64,000 nt of DNA from Novosphingobium sp. (GTDB lineage: Bacteria > Pseudomonadota > Alphaproteobacteria > Sphingomonadales > Sphingomonadaceae), in assembly GCA_031372185.1 (NCBI GenBank), contig JANMKT010000029.1:9010-73009 (forward strand), written 5' to 3'. Position 1 is the first letter of the stretch. Every line of letters begins with the position of its first letter. Below are positions 3,377-55,270 of the stretch, piece after piece. Both the position numbers and the translations under genes were made by a program. The notes below the pieces were generated by a model. The model made no database searches. It had not been told where the DNA came from and saw only the letters and a list, made by a program, of their open reading frames with translations.

Positions 3377-5617
3377 ATGCCCAAACCCCAGCCTGGCCTG
3401 CCCAGCCCCAAACAGATCCTCGAATTCGTCGCCAGCTCTCCCACGCCCGCAGGCAAGCGCGAGATTGCCCGTCATTTCGGCCTCAAAGGGCAAGAGAAGA
3501 TCGCGCTCAAGGCGCTGCTCCGCGATATGACCGATGAGGGCCTGATCGACGGCGAAAAGCGGGCGTTCCACCGGATGGGCGGAGTGCCCAAGGTCACCGT
3601 ATTGCGGGTAATGGTGATCGAGGACGGCGAGGCCTTCGCCATCCCCGACAATTGGTCACCCGATGATGCCAGCCCTCCGCTGCGGCTGCGGCTGGTCGAA
3701 AAGGGTAGCCGCAGCGCGCTCAAAGTGGGCGACCGGGTGCTCGCCCGGACCGAGGAAGCGGGCGCCGGGTGGCGCGCGTTCCCGATGAAAAAGCTGCCCG
3801 CCAGCGAAGAGCAATTGCTCGGAGTGGTGGAAATTGACGGAGCGGGGAAGGGCTGGCTGGCTCCGGTCGACAAGCGGGTCCGCAACGCCTCGCCGATTGT
3901 CGATCTGGGCGGAGCGGAAGCGGGCAATCTGGTGCTGGCTGAACCTGCCGGGCGCTCGACCCGCGCAGGGGTCAAGGTCACTCAGATCCTCGGCGATCCG
4001 CTCGCGCCGCGCGCCTTCAGCCTGATTGCAATCCACAAGTACGGCATTCCCAATAGCTTCGACGAAGAAACGCTGGACGAGGCGGTGCTTGCTGCCAAAC
4101 TGCCATTGAGCGCCGAAAAGCGCGAGGATTTGCGCCACCTCCCGATTGTCGCGATCGATCCCAGCGATGCGCGCGATCATGACGATGCGATCTGGGCTGA
4201 GCCCGATGACGCGGGCGGTTTCCGGGCGCTGGTGGCCATCGCCGACGTCTCGTTTTATGTCCGCCCCGGCAGCCTGGTAGACCGGGAGGCGCGCAAACGC
4301 GGCAATTCGGTTTATTTTCCGGACCGGGTCGTGCCGATGCTGCCCGAAGTGCTGAGCGCCGATGTCTGCAGCCTGCGGGCCGGTGAGGACCGGGCGGCAA
4401 TGGCCTGCCATCTGGCAATCGATGCCGATGGCCAGGTGACGTCGTGGCGCTTCACCCGCGCCATCGTCCGGATCGCCGAAGTGATTGCCTATGAAGAAGC
4501 GCAAAAGCGGATTAATGAGGGGACAGCAGGGACAAGCTTGCAGAACCTGTGGGCCGCCTGGCGCGTGCTGGCTGCGGCCCGCGCTGCCCGTGATCCGCTC
4601 GACCTTGACCTGCCCGAGCGCCGGGTGATGCTGGATCAGCAGGGCCGGATTACCGAAATTGCCTTGCGCGAGAGGTTGGATGCGCACCGTGTGGTCGAGG
4701 ATTTCATGATTTCCGCCAATGTTGCGGCTGCCAAAGCGCTGGAAAGCAAGCTCGCGCCAGTGGTTTACCGAATCCACGAACCGCCGAGCCGGGAAAAGCT
4801 GGTTGCGCTGAAGGATTACCTCGCCAGCTTCGAGCGCAAGTTCGCACTGGGTCAGGTCATCACCCCCAGCCTATTCAACCGACTTCTCAAGGATGTCATC
4901 GATGATACTGAAAAGGCGCTGATCATGGAGGCGGTTCTGCGCAGCCAGACTCAGGCCTACTACGGACCGAGCAATGCCGGACATTTCGGATTAGCGCTGG
5001 CCAGCTACGCCCATTTCACCTCGCCAATCCGCCGTTATGCCGATCTTCTGGTTCACCGCGCGCTGGTCGATGCCTTCCACCTAGAACAGCCGGCACCACA
5101 AAACGGACTTCCCGCAGCCTCAGGCCTGTCGAGCCGCGACCGCGAAGATCTGGGCAAGGTCAGCGAAGCGATCAGCGCAACTGAGCGCCGCGCGATGATG
5201 GCTGAGCGCGAGACGACCGACCGTTATGTCGCCGCCTGGCTATCCGCCCGCGTGGGTGAGGTTTTTGCGACCCGGATCACCGGGGTCCAGAAATTCGGCT
5301 TTTTCGCCACCATCATTGGCCTTGGCGGTGATGGGCTGGTCCCGGTTTCAACGCTTGGTGCCGAGCGGTTTTCCTATGATGAAAGCGCCCAAGTGCTGAG
5401 CGGCGAGCAGAGCGGCACCAGCTATGCCATGGGTATGATCGTCCGCCTGCGTCTGGCCGAGGCCAATGCGCTGACCGGCGCGTTGAAGTTCGAGCTGGAA
5501 CAAGGCGGGAGCAGCAGGATCGAGCCGCGCGGCACCCGGCCTGTGAAACCGGGCAAACACATGGTCGGCAAGCGCGGTCGTCCCGGCAATATGCGGCACT
5601 CGAACCGCAAGAAATGA
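3377..5617 (+). CDS. rnr: ribonuclease R family exoribonuclease
   Basis: RNB motifs DPSDARDHDDA and HFTSPIRRYADL; C-terminal S1 domain; ATG at 3377 chosen over the upstream in-frame extension. Confidence 0.9.
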   Translation: MPKPQPGLPSPKQILEFVASSPTPAGKREIARHFGLKGQEKIALKALLRDMTDEGLIDGEKRAFHRMGGVPKVTVLRVMVIEDGEAFAIPDNWSPDDASPPLRLRLVEKGSRSALKVGDRVLARTEEAGAGWRAFPMKKLPASEEQLLGVVEIDGAGKGWLAPVDKRVRNASPIVDLGGAEAGNLVLAEPAGRSTRAGVKVTQILGDPLAPRAFSLIAIHKYGIPNSFDEETLDEAVLAAKLPLSAEKREDLRHLPIVAIDPSDARDHDDAIWAEPDDAGGFRALVAIADVSFYVRPGSLVDREARKRGNSVYFPDRVVPMLPEVLSADVCSLRAGEDRAAMACHLAIDADGQVTSWRFTRAIVRIAEVIAYEEAQKRINEGTAGTSLQNLWAAWRVLAAARAARDPLDLDLPERRVMLDQQGRITEIALRERLDAHRVVEDFMISANVAAAKALESKLAPVVYRIHEPPSREKLVALKDYLASFERKFALGQVITPSLFNRLLKDVIDDTEKALIMEAVLRSQTQAYYGPSNAGHFGLALASYAHFTSPIRRYADLLVHRALVDAFHLEQPAPQNGLPAASGLSSRDREDLGKVSEAISATERRAMMAERETTDRYVAAWLSARVGEVFATRITGVQKFGFFATIIGLGGDGLVPVSTLGAERFSYDESAQVLSGEQSGTSYAMGMIVRLRLAEANALTGALKFELEQGGSSRIEPRGTRPVKPGKHMVGKRGRPGNMRHSNRKK

Positions 5618-5620
5618 GAT

Positions 5621-5712
5621 CCGTCGTCCCCGGCTTGACCGGGGGACCGCTGGCCTCATCTACGCAAGGTCGGATCGACGAGGCCAGCGGTCCCGGATCG
5701 AGTCCGGGACGA
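5621..5712. repeat. CGTC-type palindromic REP-like element between convergent rnr and usp
   Basis: Ends tcgtccc/gggacga; central stem ggaccgctggcctc/gaggccagcggtcc; two terminal hairpins; shares 27 identical nt with a pdhC coding segment. Confidence 0.85.
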
Positions 5713-5715
5713 AGA

Positions 5716-6168
5716 TCAACTCAACCGTTCGAGATCCGCATCACTCATCCTGCCGGGGATGATGTAGAGCGGGCAGGGGAGTTGTCCCACTGCGGAGCTG
5801 AAATGCGTGACCAGAGGGCCGGGGCCGCCTTCTGATGCAGCGCCCAGCACCAGCGCGGAAACTTCCGGATGTTCGGCCAGATACTCGCGGATCACCTTTT
5901 CGCCCTCGCCATGGCGGACCGATATCACCGGCATCTGCCCGCTTTCGCTCAGCAAGCTGCCCGCGGCACTGGTCACCAGCGTCTCGGCCCGGGCGTGGGC
6001 TTCTGCCTCAATCGTCGCCTGTACTCCGCCAAAGGCGACGAACGGCTGGCGCGGGATCAGCGCCAGCAGATGCACCGCGCCGCCGGTGCGCGCGGCGCGG
6101 CTGGCAGCGAAGCGCAATCCAACGCTCGCCTCTTCAGTCTCGTCCATGATTACCAGATAGACGCGCAT
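5716..6168 (-). CDS. universal stress protein family
   Basis: 150 aa; YLVIMDETEEASVGLRFA...LVLGA...GPGPL. Confidence 0.8.
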   Translation of the reverse strand: MRVYLVIMDETEEASVGLRFAASRAARTGGAVHLLALIPRQPFVAFGGVQATIEAEAHARAETLVTSAAGSLLSESGQMPVISVRHGEGEKVIREYLAEHPEVSALVLGAASEGGPGPLVTHFSSAVGQLPCPLYIIPGRMSDADLERLS

Positions 6169-6296
6169 CGTCCGGACCCCTCACGGCCCAGCTATCCGCT
6201 GAAAACGTATTCTGCGCAAGAACCTTGCCCCGCGCCGTCATTTTGGCCAGAGACTGAACCGGTATATTGTGCCTGAACAGAACCGGACCTGCACCC

Positions 6297-7535
6297 ATGC
6301 CGATCGAAATCAAGATGCCCGCGCTGTCCCCCACCATGGAAGAGGGGACGCTGGCCAAATGGCTGGTCAAGGTGGGCGACAAGGTGCTGTCGGGCGACAT
6401 CATGGCCGAGATCGAAACCGACAAGGCGACAATGGAATTCGAGGCGGTCGATGAAGGCGTGATCATCGCGATTGCAGTGAGCGAGGGTAGCGAAGGCGTG
6501 AAGGTTGGCACGGTGATCGCCACGCTGGCGGGAGAGGATGAGGATGCGAGCGCAGCACCTGCGCCCAAGGCCGCGCCCGTCGTCCCCGCGAAGGCGGGGA
6601 CCGCTGGCCTCGTCGATCCGACCCCTGCGCCCAGCGCCCAGCGGCCGGAGGCGACGAATGATAGTCGCGTCATCGCCTCGCCGCTGGCCAAGCGGATTGC
6701 TGCGGAGCGCGGGATTGATCTGGCAGGCGTGACAGGCACCGGCCCGGGCGGGCGGATCGTCAAGGCGGACGTTGTGGAAGCAAGGCCGGTGGCAGCCGCT
6801 TCGACAGTGGCCGCGACCACTTCAGCCCCAACACCGGACTTCGGTATTCCCTATGAGGCGGAAAAACTCAACAACATCCGAAAAATCATCGCCCGCCGCC
6901 TGACCGAGGCCAAGCAGACGATTCCGCACATTTACCTCACCGTCGATGTCCGGCTCGATGCGCTGCTCAAACTGCGCGCCGAACTTAACAAGGCACTTGA
7001 AGCACAGGGTGTAAAGCTCTCGGTCAATGACCTTCTGATCAAGGCACTGGGCAAGGCGCTGCTGCTGGTGCCCCAGTGCAATGTCAGCTTTGCAGGCGAC
7101 GAGCTGCGCAAATATGCCCGCGCCGACATCTCGGTGGCGGTGGCTGCGCCATCGGGCCTGATCACGCCGATCATCGTTGATGCCGCCAACAAGTCCGTTT
7201 CGCAAATATCGAGGGAAATGAAAGCACTGGCCGACAAGGCCCGCGAAGGCAAGTTGCAGCCGCATGAGTATCAGGGCGGCACCGCCAGCCTGTCCAACCT
7301 CGGCATGTTCGGGATCAAGCAATTCGATGCGGTGATCAACCCGCCACAGGGCATGATCATGGCAGTCGGCGCGGGCGAGAAGCGGCCCTATGTGGTCGAT
7401 GATGCGCTCGCCATCGCCACCGTGATGAGCGCCACCGGCAGCTTCGATCACCGCGCGATCGACGGCGCAGACGGCGCGGCGCTAATGCAAGCGTTCAAGG
7501 GACTGGTTGAGATGCCTTTGGGCTTGGTGGCGTAA
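6297..7535 (+). CDS. pdhC: pyruvate dehydrogenase E2 dihydrolipoamide acetyltransferase
   Basis: Lipoyl domain (ETDKATME), E3-binding ASPLAKRIA, catalytic DHRAIDG. Confidence 0.95.
6577..6657 (+). repeat. in-frame palindromic REP-like element inside the pdhC linker
   Basis: ccgtc-gtccccgc-gaag-gcggggac hairpin; gggaccgctggcctcgtcgatccgacc identical to the reverse complement of the 5621-5712 element; ends in gacga. Confidence 0.85.
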
Positions 7536-53884: not shown

Positions 53885-55270
53885 CTAATTTGAGCGATCA
53901 CAAACCTGCCGCACCGCATCGGCAATCTTTGCGGGATCGATCAGCGCCGCCTTTTCCAGATTGGCGGCATAGGGCAGCGGCACATCTTCATTGCAGACCC
54001 GCAGCACCGGGGCATCGAGATGATCGAAGCCCTCCTCCATGCAAATTGCCATGATCTCGGAGGCAATGCCGCACACAGGCCAGCCTTCCTCGGCCACAAC
54101 CAGCCGATTGGTCTTGGCCAGGCTCGTCAATACTGCCGAGCGATCAAGCGGGCGCAGCGTGCGCAGGTCGATTACCTCGGCGTTGATGCCTTCTGCGGCG
54201 AGTGTCTCGGCTGCATCCAGGGCCAGTCCGACCCCGATCGAATAGCTGACGATGGTCACATCCGTGCCCTCACGCATGATCCGCGCCTTGCCAATCGGCA
54301 GAACGTGATCATCGAGTTCGGGCAATTCGAAGCTGCGCCCATAAACCAGCTCATTCTCCAGGAAAACCACCGGATCTTCGCTGCGGATCGCGGCCTTGAG
54401 CAGGCCTTTGGCGTCCGCCGCGTCATAGGGCGCGATCACCACCAGGCCCGGAACGCTGGCATACCACGGGCCATAGTTCTGGCTGTGCTGTGCGCCGACC
54501 CGGCTGGCCGCGCCATTGGGACCGCGGAACACCACCGGACAGCGCATCTGGCCTCCGGACATGTAATTGGTCTTAGCCGCAGAATTAATAATATGATCAA
54601 TTGCTTGCATGGCGAAGTTAAACGTCATGAACTCAATGATCGGGCGAAGGCCGCCCATCGCCGCGCCGGTGCCGATCCCAGCAAAGCCGTATTCCGTGAT
54701 CGGAGTGTCGATCACCCGCTTTGGTCCAAACTCGTCGAGCAGACCCTGGGTGACCTTATAAGCGCCCTGGTACTCGGCAACTTCTTCACCCATAACGAAA
54801 ACGCGGGGATCGCGGCGCATTTCTTCGGCCATGGCATCGCGCAAGGCCTCACGCACAGTTGAGGTTTTCATATTTGTGCCAGCCGGAATAGAGGGATCGG
54901 CCTTGCGCGGGGCGTTCTTTTTCGCGTCGTCCCGGACTTGACCCAGGGTCGCTGGAGCCTTGGCGTTTCGTTCCGCAATCACATCGACGAGGCCAGCAGT
55001 CCCCGCTTTCGCGGGGACGATGGTGCCCCCCTCACCACCCATTACCGCGATCACGGTGCCGACTTTCACCCCTTCGCTGCCTTCAGGGATCAGGATCTGT
55101 CCGATAGTACCTTCATCGACGGCCTCGTATTCCATCGTCGCCTTGTCGGTTTCGATCTCGGCCAGGATATCACCGGATTTGACTGTATCGCCTTCCTTGA
55201 CCAGCCATTTGGCCAGGGTGCCTTCTTCCATGGTCGGCGACAGGGCGGGCATTTTCAGTTCGATTGCCAT
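53885..55270 (-). CDS. pdhB: pyruvate dehydrogenase E1 beta subunit with N-terminal lipoyl domain
   Basis: Lipoyl ETDKATME; [31 protein letters not shown]. Confidence 0.97.
54925..55023 (-). repeat. full-length in-frame palindromic REP-like element forming the pdhB linker
   Basis: 99 bp; minus strand ccatc-gtccccgc-gaaa-gcggggac-tgctggcctcgtcgat...gggtcaagtccgggacgacg; same family as 5621-5712 and 6577-6657. Confidence 0.87.

Follow-up and report, generated by a model that had tools for sequence, protein, structure and literature searches.

The 64,000-nucleotide (nt) stretch of Novosphingobium DNA analysed here (the window, C80:9010-73009 of genome G000) contains pdhC, the gene for the dihydrolipoamide acetyltransferase (E2) of the pyruvate dehydrogenase (PDH) complex. 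A short segment of this gene, at 6578-6656, is probably the fossil of a non-autonomous palindromic repeat, a doublet of CGTC-tagged repetitive extragenic palindromic (REP) hairpins built round a central palindrome. The G000 assembly is a draft of 2.64 Mb in 120 contigs (61.6% G+C, 94.6% complete), and it was compared with 30 genomes of relatives, comprising same-genus members and outgroups. Two other carriers of the PdhC insert recur below, namely the relative G010 and a third Novosphingobium metagenome-assembled genome (MAG), represented by locus L082. Calls for genes other than named ones come from our own crude self-trained codon model.

An in-frame palindromic repeat in the PdhC linker

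The gene, the parts of its insert and an intergenic copy of the same repeat are located as follows.

6297..7535, + strand: pdhC, E2 of the PDH complex, 412 aa (open reading frame and Pfam)
6578..6656, + strand: 79-nt in-frame copy, decayed, of the CGTC-tagged REP doublet of ~91 nt, coding PdhC residues 95-120 (profile E = 1.1e-7; alignment to G010)
6578..6581, + strand: left CGTC tag (sequence; invariant at the left end of 59 full-length copies)
6582..6601, + strand: left hairpin, a perfectly paired 8-bp stem GTCCCCGC / GCGGGGAC with the 4-nt loop GAAG (sequence, fold)
6602..6623, + strand: left arm of the central palindrome, CGCTGGCCTCGTCGATCCGACC (exact 27-nt match, alignment)
6624..6644, + strand: degenerate centre and right-arm remnant, in which pairing with the left arm is kept only by CCAGCGG at 6638-6644 (fold, alignment)
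6645..6656, + strand: right-hairpin remnant CCGGAGGC and right GACG tag at 6653-6656 (alignment to G010 and L082)
5622..5712, unstranded: full-length intergenic copy between convergent rnr-like and usp-like genes (profile E = 3.3e-15)

PdhC matches three Pfam domains, Biotin_lipoyl (residues 4-77), E3_binding (125-159) and the catalytic 2-oxoacid_dh (186-410), and the 26 repeat-coded residues sit between the first two. An earlier note on this DNA, made from its letters alone, had proposed that a dispersed hairpin repeat was absorbed in frame into this lipoyl-to-E3-binding linker, and the family of loci described below, the profile and the Pfam matches all support this. The hairpin, inner pairing and terminal pairing that it described are present in the sequence, and the 26-aa translation reads in the frame it gave (residues 95-120 of 412). 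Likewise, the 27-nt identity that it reported to the reverse complement of the intergenic element proved exact: 6597-6623 and the reverse complement of 5668-5694 are identical, without a single mismatch, and such a match occurred in 0/100 shuffles. Furthermore, a profile built from only 11 copies elsewhere in the genome matches the PdhC copy at 6578-6625 with E = 1.1e-7.

The PdhC copy has lost much of its secondary structure. The only pairing left is the left hairpin, a 7-bp inner pairing of CCGCTGG (6601-6607) with CCAGCGG (6638-6644), and a 5-bp terminal pairing of TCGTC with GACGA. Treated as single-stranded DNA, the fold of the whole element is largely decayed (z-score of -1.8 compared to shuffles), while that of the intergenic copy (5622-5712) is much stronger than in shuffles (z = -5.6). 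The right hairpin is 12 nt shorter in G000 than in the aligned G010 and L082 copies, with the frame kept.

The repeat family across the genome

BLAST and an iterated nhmmer profile place the repeat family at 86 distinct loci in G000, of which 77 span at least 80 nt and 73 have E < 1e-10. The motif thus recurs elsewhere in the genome, as the earlier note had anticipated, with most loci intergenic and about 6 of the 86 internal to genes. The full unit of 90-92 nt consists of CGTC, a hairpin with an 8-bp stem, the central palindrome (CGCTGGCCTCATCGA ... TCGATGAGGCCAGCG), a second hairpin and GACG. Its CGTC...GACG boundaries are sharp, with the tags invariant or near-invariant in the 59 full copies. 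The hairpin loops are of 4 nt (GAAA) or 5 nt (CTTGA or TCAAG), and tagged hairpins across the genome number 27 with 4-nt loops against 124 with 5-nt loops. Hence, the long element is usually a mixed doublet, most doublets consisting of one 4-nt- or 5-nt-loop hairpin and one 5-nt-loop hairpin. Stems start GT...AC in the PdhC copy and AT...AT in many others, and the bases after the stem are CGC(TGG), where CCA is expected for the CGTC-1 class discussed at the end of this text. Short units of 29 nt (tag, single hairpin, tag) occur about 17 times. The family is short, non-coding, palindromic and dispersed, and at times fused in frame with host open reading frames. A scan of 5400-6900 against Rfam gave chance-level matches only (E 0.055 to 1, far under gathering scores).

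Copies normally sit 0-8 nt past stop codons, with a median gap of 3 nt from the upstream stop to the repeat according to the crude gene calls. The same calls assign 41 copies to gaps between unidirectional genes, 19 to convergent and 3 to divergent gaps, compared to a background of 1368, 337 and 344, respectively. For nine genes, again by the crude calls, the predicted stop lies 17 nt inside the element and is the TGA of the CTTGA loop, so that the last five codons and the stop come from the repeat. One 29-nt unit of tag, hairpin and tag was also observed inside a long open frame of G000 (C33:4507-4535). The frame past this unit looks non-coding, and the arrangement may represent a read-through tail or a frame error.

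No target-site duplication could be detected, flanking direct repeats of 2-9 nt being no commoner than chance around the 59 full copies. The earlier note had suggested looking for a mobilising tyrosine transposase or GIY-YIG nuclease elsewhere in the genome. No match to Y1_Tnp (PF01797; REP-associated tyrosine transposase (RAYT) or IS200-type) was found in the 94.6% complete G000 draft; GIY-YIG nucleases were not searched, because a match such as UvrC says little unless it is linked to the element. In G010, G003, G008, G001 and G004, no copy of the family lies within 1.5 kb of the Y1_Tnp loci. G000 and G010 both lack the IS110 transposase (PF01548) and the TnpB zinc-ribbon (PF07282), nor was a parent insertion sequence found whose ends match those of the repeat. 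Draft MAGs may miss insertion sequences, and the absence of a mobilising enzyme is therefore weak evidence.

Distribution and history of the PdhC insert

When one genome per species was scanned for the hairpin-plus-arm pattern, nearly all carriers were Novosphingobium and unclassified Sphingomonadaceae MAGs, together with a few cultured strains (N. sp. AP12, N. anseongense and Croceibacterium soli). When the 30 relatives were searched by BLAST, G010 alone was found to hold the full element at G000-like numbers. Weaker copies were seen in G007, G015, G008, G001 and G003, and beyond the genus there are just a few marginal matches, in G020 and G029.

Alignment of PdhC across these relatives places the element in G010 alone, where it is full length (91 nt), lies in the same place and frame, encodes the peptide VVPANAGTAGPIDATSEPSGQRSPVEPGTT and ends two codons before a conserved segment. 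A third species, at locus L082, also has a full-length element at the same place. Ordinary Ala/Pro-rich linkers are present in 16 other genus members and in 12 outgroups, so the peptide does not extend to these distant orthologues. The insert, for which the earlier note had proposed testing whether it is present only here, is consequently not confined to G000, given the full-length copies of G010 and L082. Nor does the insert amount to extra linker length: PdhC has 412 aa in G000 compared to 410-437 aa in same-genus orthologues. Given that the linker is no longer than in relatives, native linker must presumably have been lost.

The G000, G010 and L082 copies have in common a degenerate right arm, GCC(C/A)A(G/A)(C/A)G(C/G)CCAGCGG, that is unlike the family consensus, which points to common descent. 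A tree built from five proteins with the insert columns left out (1778 columns) pairs G000 with G010 as sisters at a support of 0.945, and the next branch, G004, is without the PdhC insert. We infer that the likeliest history is one PdhC insertion in the ancestor of the small G000/G010/L082 clade, followed by decay in G000. As a separate observation on this gene, pdhC of G009 (L026) shows an apparent tandem duplication of the E3-binding domain.

Other coding copies and reused sites

Five further housekeeping genes of G000 contain an in-frame element. In each case Pfam domains flank or span the insert, and insert-free orthologues exist.

54925..55021, - strand: copy of 97 nt in pdhB (E1 beta with lipoyl domain; gene 53888-55270), in the lipoyl-domain linker, 33-aa peptide (profile, Pfam)
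C9:7139-7235: copy in the IleS gene; same family in G007, L124 and L145
C11:34588-34678: copy in the GlyS gene, peptide GVVPAQAGTAGLID..., common to G010, L081, L088 and L094
C49:3004-3094: copy in the TsaD gene, peptide RRPGLVPGPLASS..., read in another frame, common to G007 (L192)
C113:28718-28807: copy in the Fmt gene, peptide CRPRLDRGPLAS..., G000 only

The PdhB element is full in G010, and recognisable remnants were found in G007, G001 and G008. The frame reading VVPAxAGTAGL, which is the least charged and most linker-like, is used by 4/6 coding copies. The family consensus has a TGA in this frame (TCGATGAGG), and the coding copies belong to or resemble a TGA-free subfamily. Furthermore, the commonest length class of 92 nt (34/59 full copies) is never found inside genes, where copies measure 90, 91 or 97 nt; such a pattern would be expected from a filter that lets through insertions preserving the frame. 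The junctions of the TsaD insert are identical in G000 and G007, and the insert is absent from the sister G010 (L194) and from G004. Either the element inserted twice at one codon boundary, or it was cleanly lost several times. That recombination brought in a G007-like allele was considered and is not supported, the flanks being no closer to G007 than to G010.

Different palindromic repeats occupy the IleS and GlyS sites in other species. In same-genus genomes, the loop after QWFVPMD in IleS (L055-L071) and the one after NILKKE in GlyS (L168-L184) contain repeat-like peptides that differ by species (PLPSGEGPGVGG.., LRQAQGER.., SPSQVDGE..SPSTCDGE.. and SPLQGRGRSG..), with outgroups lacking an insert. 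These two loops look like permissive hot spots that have been reused by at least four repeat families. GlyS has a second in-frame insert, from another palindromic family, at C11:35452-35598 (CCCCTCCCGCTTGCGGGAGGGG...CCCCTCCCGCAAGCGGGAGGGG, peptide PLPLAGGAGGGSVPLSAASISDSPTPNPSRKREGN). This other family also occurs at C27:3505-3605 and on C64, along with many partial matches, and in L089 a CGTC element is found at the second GlyS site instead. The second site may be the one reported for GlyS of Erythrobacter litoralis (residues 398-423).

Peptides of the sort that other palindromic repeats encode were also observed in PDH lipoyl linkers of other Sphingomonadales, as in L024 (pdhC of G029; PRKRESS..DSRLRGNDE), L051 (pdhB of G020; SSRTRGSS..DSRVRGNDK) and L035 (pdhB of G003; PLPQAGG..PLPLAGGVGGG). 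Repeat colonisation of PDH linkers seems to be recurrent across the order.

Synonymous-site conservation and hairpin turnover

Orthologous coding copies were compared at third codon positions of identical residues. Within the tag, left hairpin and left arm, 75/78 such positions are conserved over eight species pairs. For G000 and G010, three genes keep 25/27 third positions in the tag, hairpin and arm compared to 540/879 in the rest of the genes. Codon bias was tried as the source of this difference and rejected, the codon-matched expectation being 16.4/27 (binomial p = 3e-4). The loop codon varies freely among orthologous coding copies (AAA, AAC, AAG, AAT or CAG); the stems do not. Selection on the hairpin, gene conversion from other copies, or self-correction of the palindrome by template switching would each explain the conservation.

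The intergenic copy between the rnr-like and usp-like genes offers a comparison at an orthologous site. Its left hairpin has a 5-nt loop in G000 (5622-5712) and a GAAA loop in G010 (L008:3107-3197), and in L082 the copy is cut to a single hairpin (L082:2959-2995). These differences indicate module exchange, turnover or re-insertion at a fixed site. Such turnover of subtypes favours a non-functional account of the stem conservation, without settling the question.

Origin of the insert and alternative explanations

The proposed sequence of events is as follows. The repeat would have entered the pdhC linker in the common ancestor of G000, G010 and the third Novosphingobium MAG, in an orientation and frame reading VVPAxAGTAGL..., stop-free and rich in Ala, Pro, Gly and Thr. 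Judging from the reading frame, ribosomes would read through the repeat, and the 26 residues would join the flexible lipoyl-to-E3-binding arm. As the overall linker length is in the normal range, the effect on the enzyme is probably neutral. After insertion, the G000 copy would have shed 12 nt from the right hairpin along with most central pairing, leaving the left hairpin intact. A filter is proposed to act on such events, whereby intragenic copies would survive only in permissive linkers or loops, with an open frame and a frame-keeping length.

Several observations weigh against this account. Synonymous sites show more conservation in the hairpin than in the remainder of the genes, which a purely neutral fossil does not predict. 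The PdhC linker is not lengthened, so that an offsetting loss of native linker has to be supposed. The exact insertion junction is not reconstructable, the loops around the site being too variable among empty-site orthologues. The copies have no flanking duplication, and copies of 91 or 97 nt cannot be divided evenly by three, meaning one terminal base may belong to the target. The presence of the TsaD copy in G007 and not in G010 means simple vertical descent cannot explain every copy. It is possible, although we consider it decidedly unlikely, that the PdhC copies of G000, G010 and L082 are independent hot-spot insertions and not the product of one ancestral event. Such a history would fit the IleS and GlyS sites, which hold at least four repeat families in different species, the identical TsaD junctions in G000 and G007 with no copy in the sister G010, and the intergenic copy by pdhC, which differs in subtype between G000 and G010. 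However, the three PdhC copies read in the same frame, have the same non-consensus degenerate right arm and lie at a distance from the E3-binding domain that is equal or differs by one codon. In addition, G000 and G010 are sisters in the tree, and the element's central part shows about the same divergence as the remainder of the gene, which argues for a single insertion.

That the coding copies are more than fossils, with the left hairpin kept by selection at the DNA or RNA level, appears rather unlikely. The hairpin might, for example, serve as a site where a host factor binds or cleaves, as mRNA structure slowing ribosomes between domains, or as a substrate for mobilisation that is still active. 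The excess of conserved third positions between G000 and G010, the recurrence of the pattern in all eight species pairs and the free variation of the loop codon beside constant stems are consistent with this proposal. In contrast, the loops keep neither GNRA nor another fixed form, the right hairpin and central stem are decayed in both the PdhC and PdhB copies, and gene conversion from the 80-odd other copies or template-switching self-correction would conserve stems without function. The orthologous intergenic copy, with its different hairpin subtypes in G000 and G010 and its single hairpin in L082, likewise speaks against the proposal, as it shows exchange or turnover at fixed sites. The broader claim that in-frame hairpins are kept at the nucleic-acid level, and not merely tolerated, is accordingly one we regard as doubtful. 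Were selection rather than conversion or self-correction responsible, REP hairpins inside essential genes would be functional in DNA or mRNA. The PDH linkers, one IleS loop, two GlyS loops and one TsaD loop would then be maintained landing pads, at which several repeat families replace one another across the Sphingomonadales. One might suspect that the resemblance is due to chance, that it reflects convergence by a GC-rich linker coding for Ala and Pro, or that contigs were chimerically joined at a repeat during assembly, since PDH linkers are low-complexity and GC-rich and the genome is a draft of 120 contigs. An origin of this kind is scarcely credible and not supported in view of the exact 27-nt match (0/100 shuffles), the profile E-value, the position of both flanks in one continuous pdhC frame with the expected domains, and the same arrangement in two independently assembled genomes.

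With the PdhC segment read as a repeat fossil, the odd linker is explained as repeat-derived rather than erroneous. The organisms that translate selfish palindromes within essential enzymes thereby come to include a Novosphingobium lineage that is free-living and has a small genome. Flexible linkers can, on this evidence, be rebuilt from repeat DNA at unchanged length, and different repeat families repeatedly reuse the same few permissive sites. Conservation of the hairpin at synonymous sites furthermore bears on what keeps REP sequences constant.

Comparison with known systems

A literature search on in-frame palindromic elements in sphingomonads returned nothing specific to them; the relevant record is a supplementary table of the study of CGTC-tagged REPs by Di Nocera, De Gregorio and Rocco (2013, BMC Genomics 14:522; PMC3733652). 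These repeats carry a CGTC tag, stems of 8 or 9 bp and loops of 4 or 5 nt. The CGTC-1 family has an 8-bp stem and a 4-nt loop, complementary A-T at stem positions one and two and a short CCA-like tail, with families 2-4 defined by 5-nt loops (PMC3733652). They are found mostly in Alphaproteobacteria, including Sphingomonas, Sphingobium, Sphingopyxis, Novosphingobium and Erythrobacter, and mostly as inverted doublets just past open reading frames. They are common between unidirectional or convergent genes and rare between divergent ones, and no dedicated transposase is known (PMC3733652). Intragenic copies code for 20-30 residues, and the authors suggest that they are neutral, as they occupy linkers or loops that are flexible (PMC3733652).

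The element described here resembles CGTC-1 REPs in its CGTC tag, 8-bp stem, 4-nt loop, inverted doublet and post-ORF (open reading frame) placement, as well as in the lack of a known dedicated transposase, intragenic doublets coding 20-30 residues and Sphingomonadales hosts. The CGTC-tagged REP-like identity given in the earlier note thus agrees with a described type. It differs in having a long conserved central palindrome, CGCTGGCCTCATCGA..., within a fixed unit of 90-92 nt, in the usual combination of a 4-nt- or 5-nt-loop hairpin with a 5-nt-loop one, and in the tail by the stem, which is CGC here compared to the CCA consensus. Additional file 3 of that study lists a CGTC-1 unit in the PDH E1 of Sphingopyxis alaskensis (Sala_0526, residues 86-93, VAPAQAGA), a single CGTC-1 unit in its PDH E2 (Sala_1235, residues 180-187), and doublets in GlyS (VVPAKAGT...IPASAGMT) and IleS of E. 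litoralis (PMC3733652). The Sala_1235 unit lies further along the protein, whereas the G000 PdhC element is in the first linker. The Novosphingobium lineage of G000 is outside the sample of that study. These cases concern the same genes with nearly the same peptide, and the PdhC insert is hence of a kind already described.

In-frame insertion is classically exemplified by the Rickettsia palindromic elements (RPE; Ogata et al. 2000, Science 290:347; summary in PMC10969869). By description, both are palindromic repeats found in frame in many unrelated housekeeping genes, with the extra peptide tolerated by the fold. RPE-1-type elements, at about 100-150 bp, exceed the present element in length and AT content and occur solely in Rickettsia, and the intragenic share in R. 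conorii is much larger than the about 6/86 loci seen here. The host of the present element is also free-living. RPE-6 and RPE-4 are themselves CGTC-1 and CGTC-4 repeats (PMC3733652).

The element is similar to the REP doublets known as REPINs, mobilised by RAYTs, in forming inverted doublets of short palindromes with a long hairpin, in its high copy number and mostly extragenic location, and in lacking a target-site duplication. It carries a CGTC tag in place of the GTAG of REPINs, and G000 has no Y1_Tnp gene, while in relatives the element does not flank the Y1_Tnp genes. Compared to miniature inverted-repeat transposable elements derived from DDE transposons, inverted termini are present and a target-site duplication was not found among 59 copies. 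Translated repeats are already documented, including in PDH genes of a related genus, and G000 adds one more case. What sets G000 apart is that the unit is fixed, with three parts and ~91 nt, and that both lipoyl linkers of a single PDH complex contain copies.

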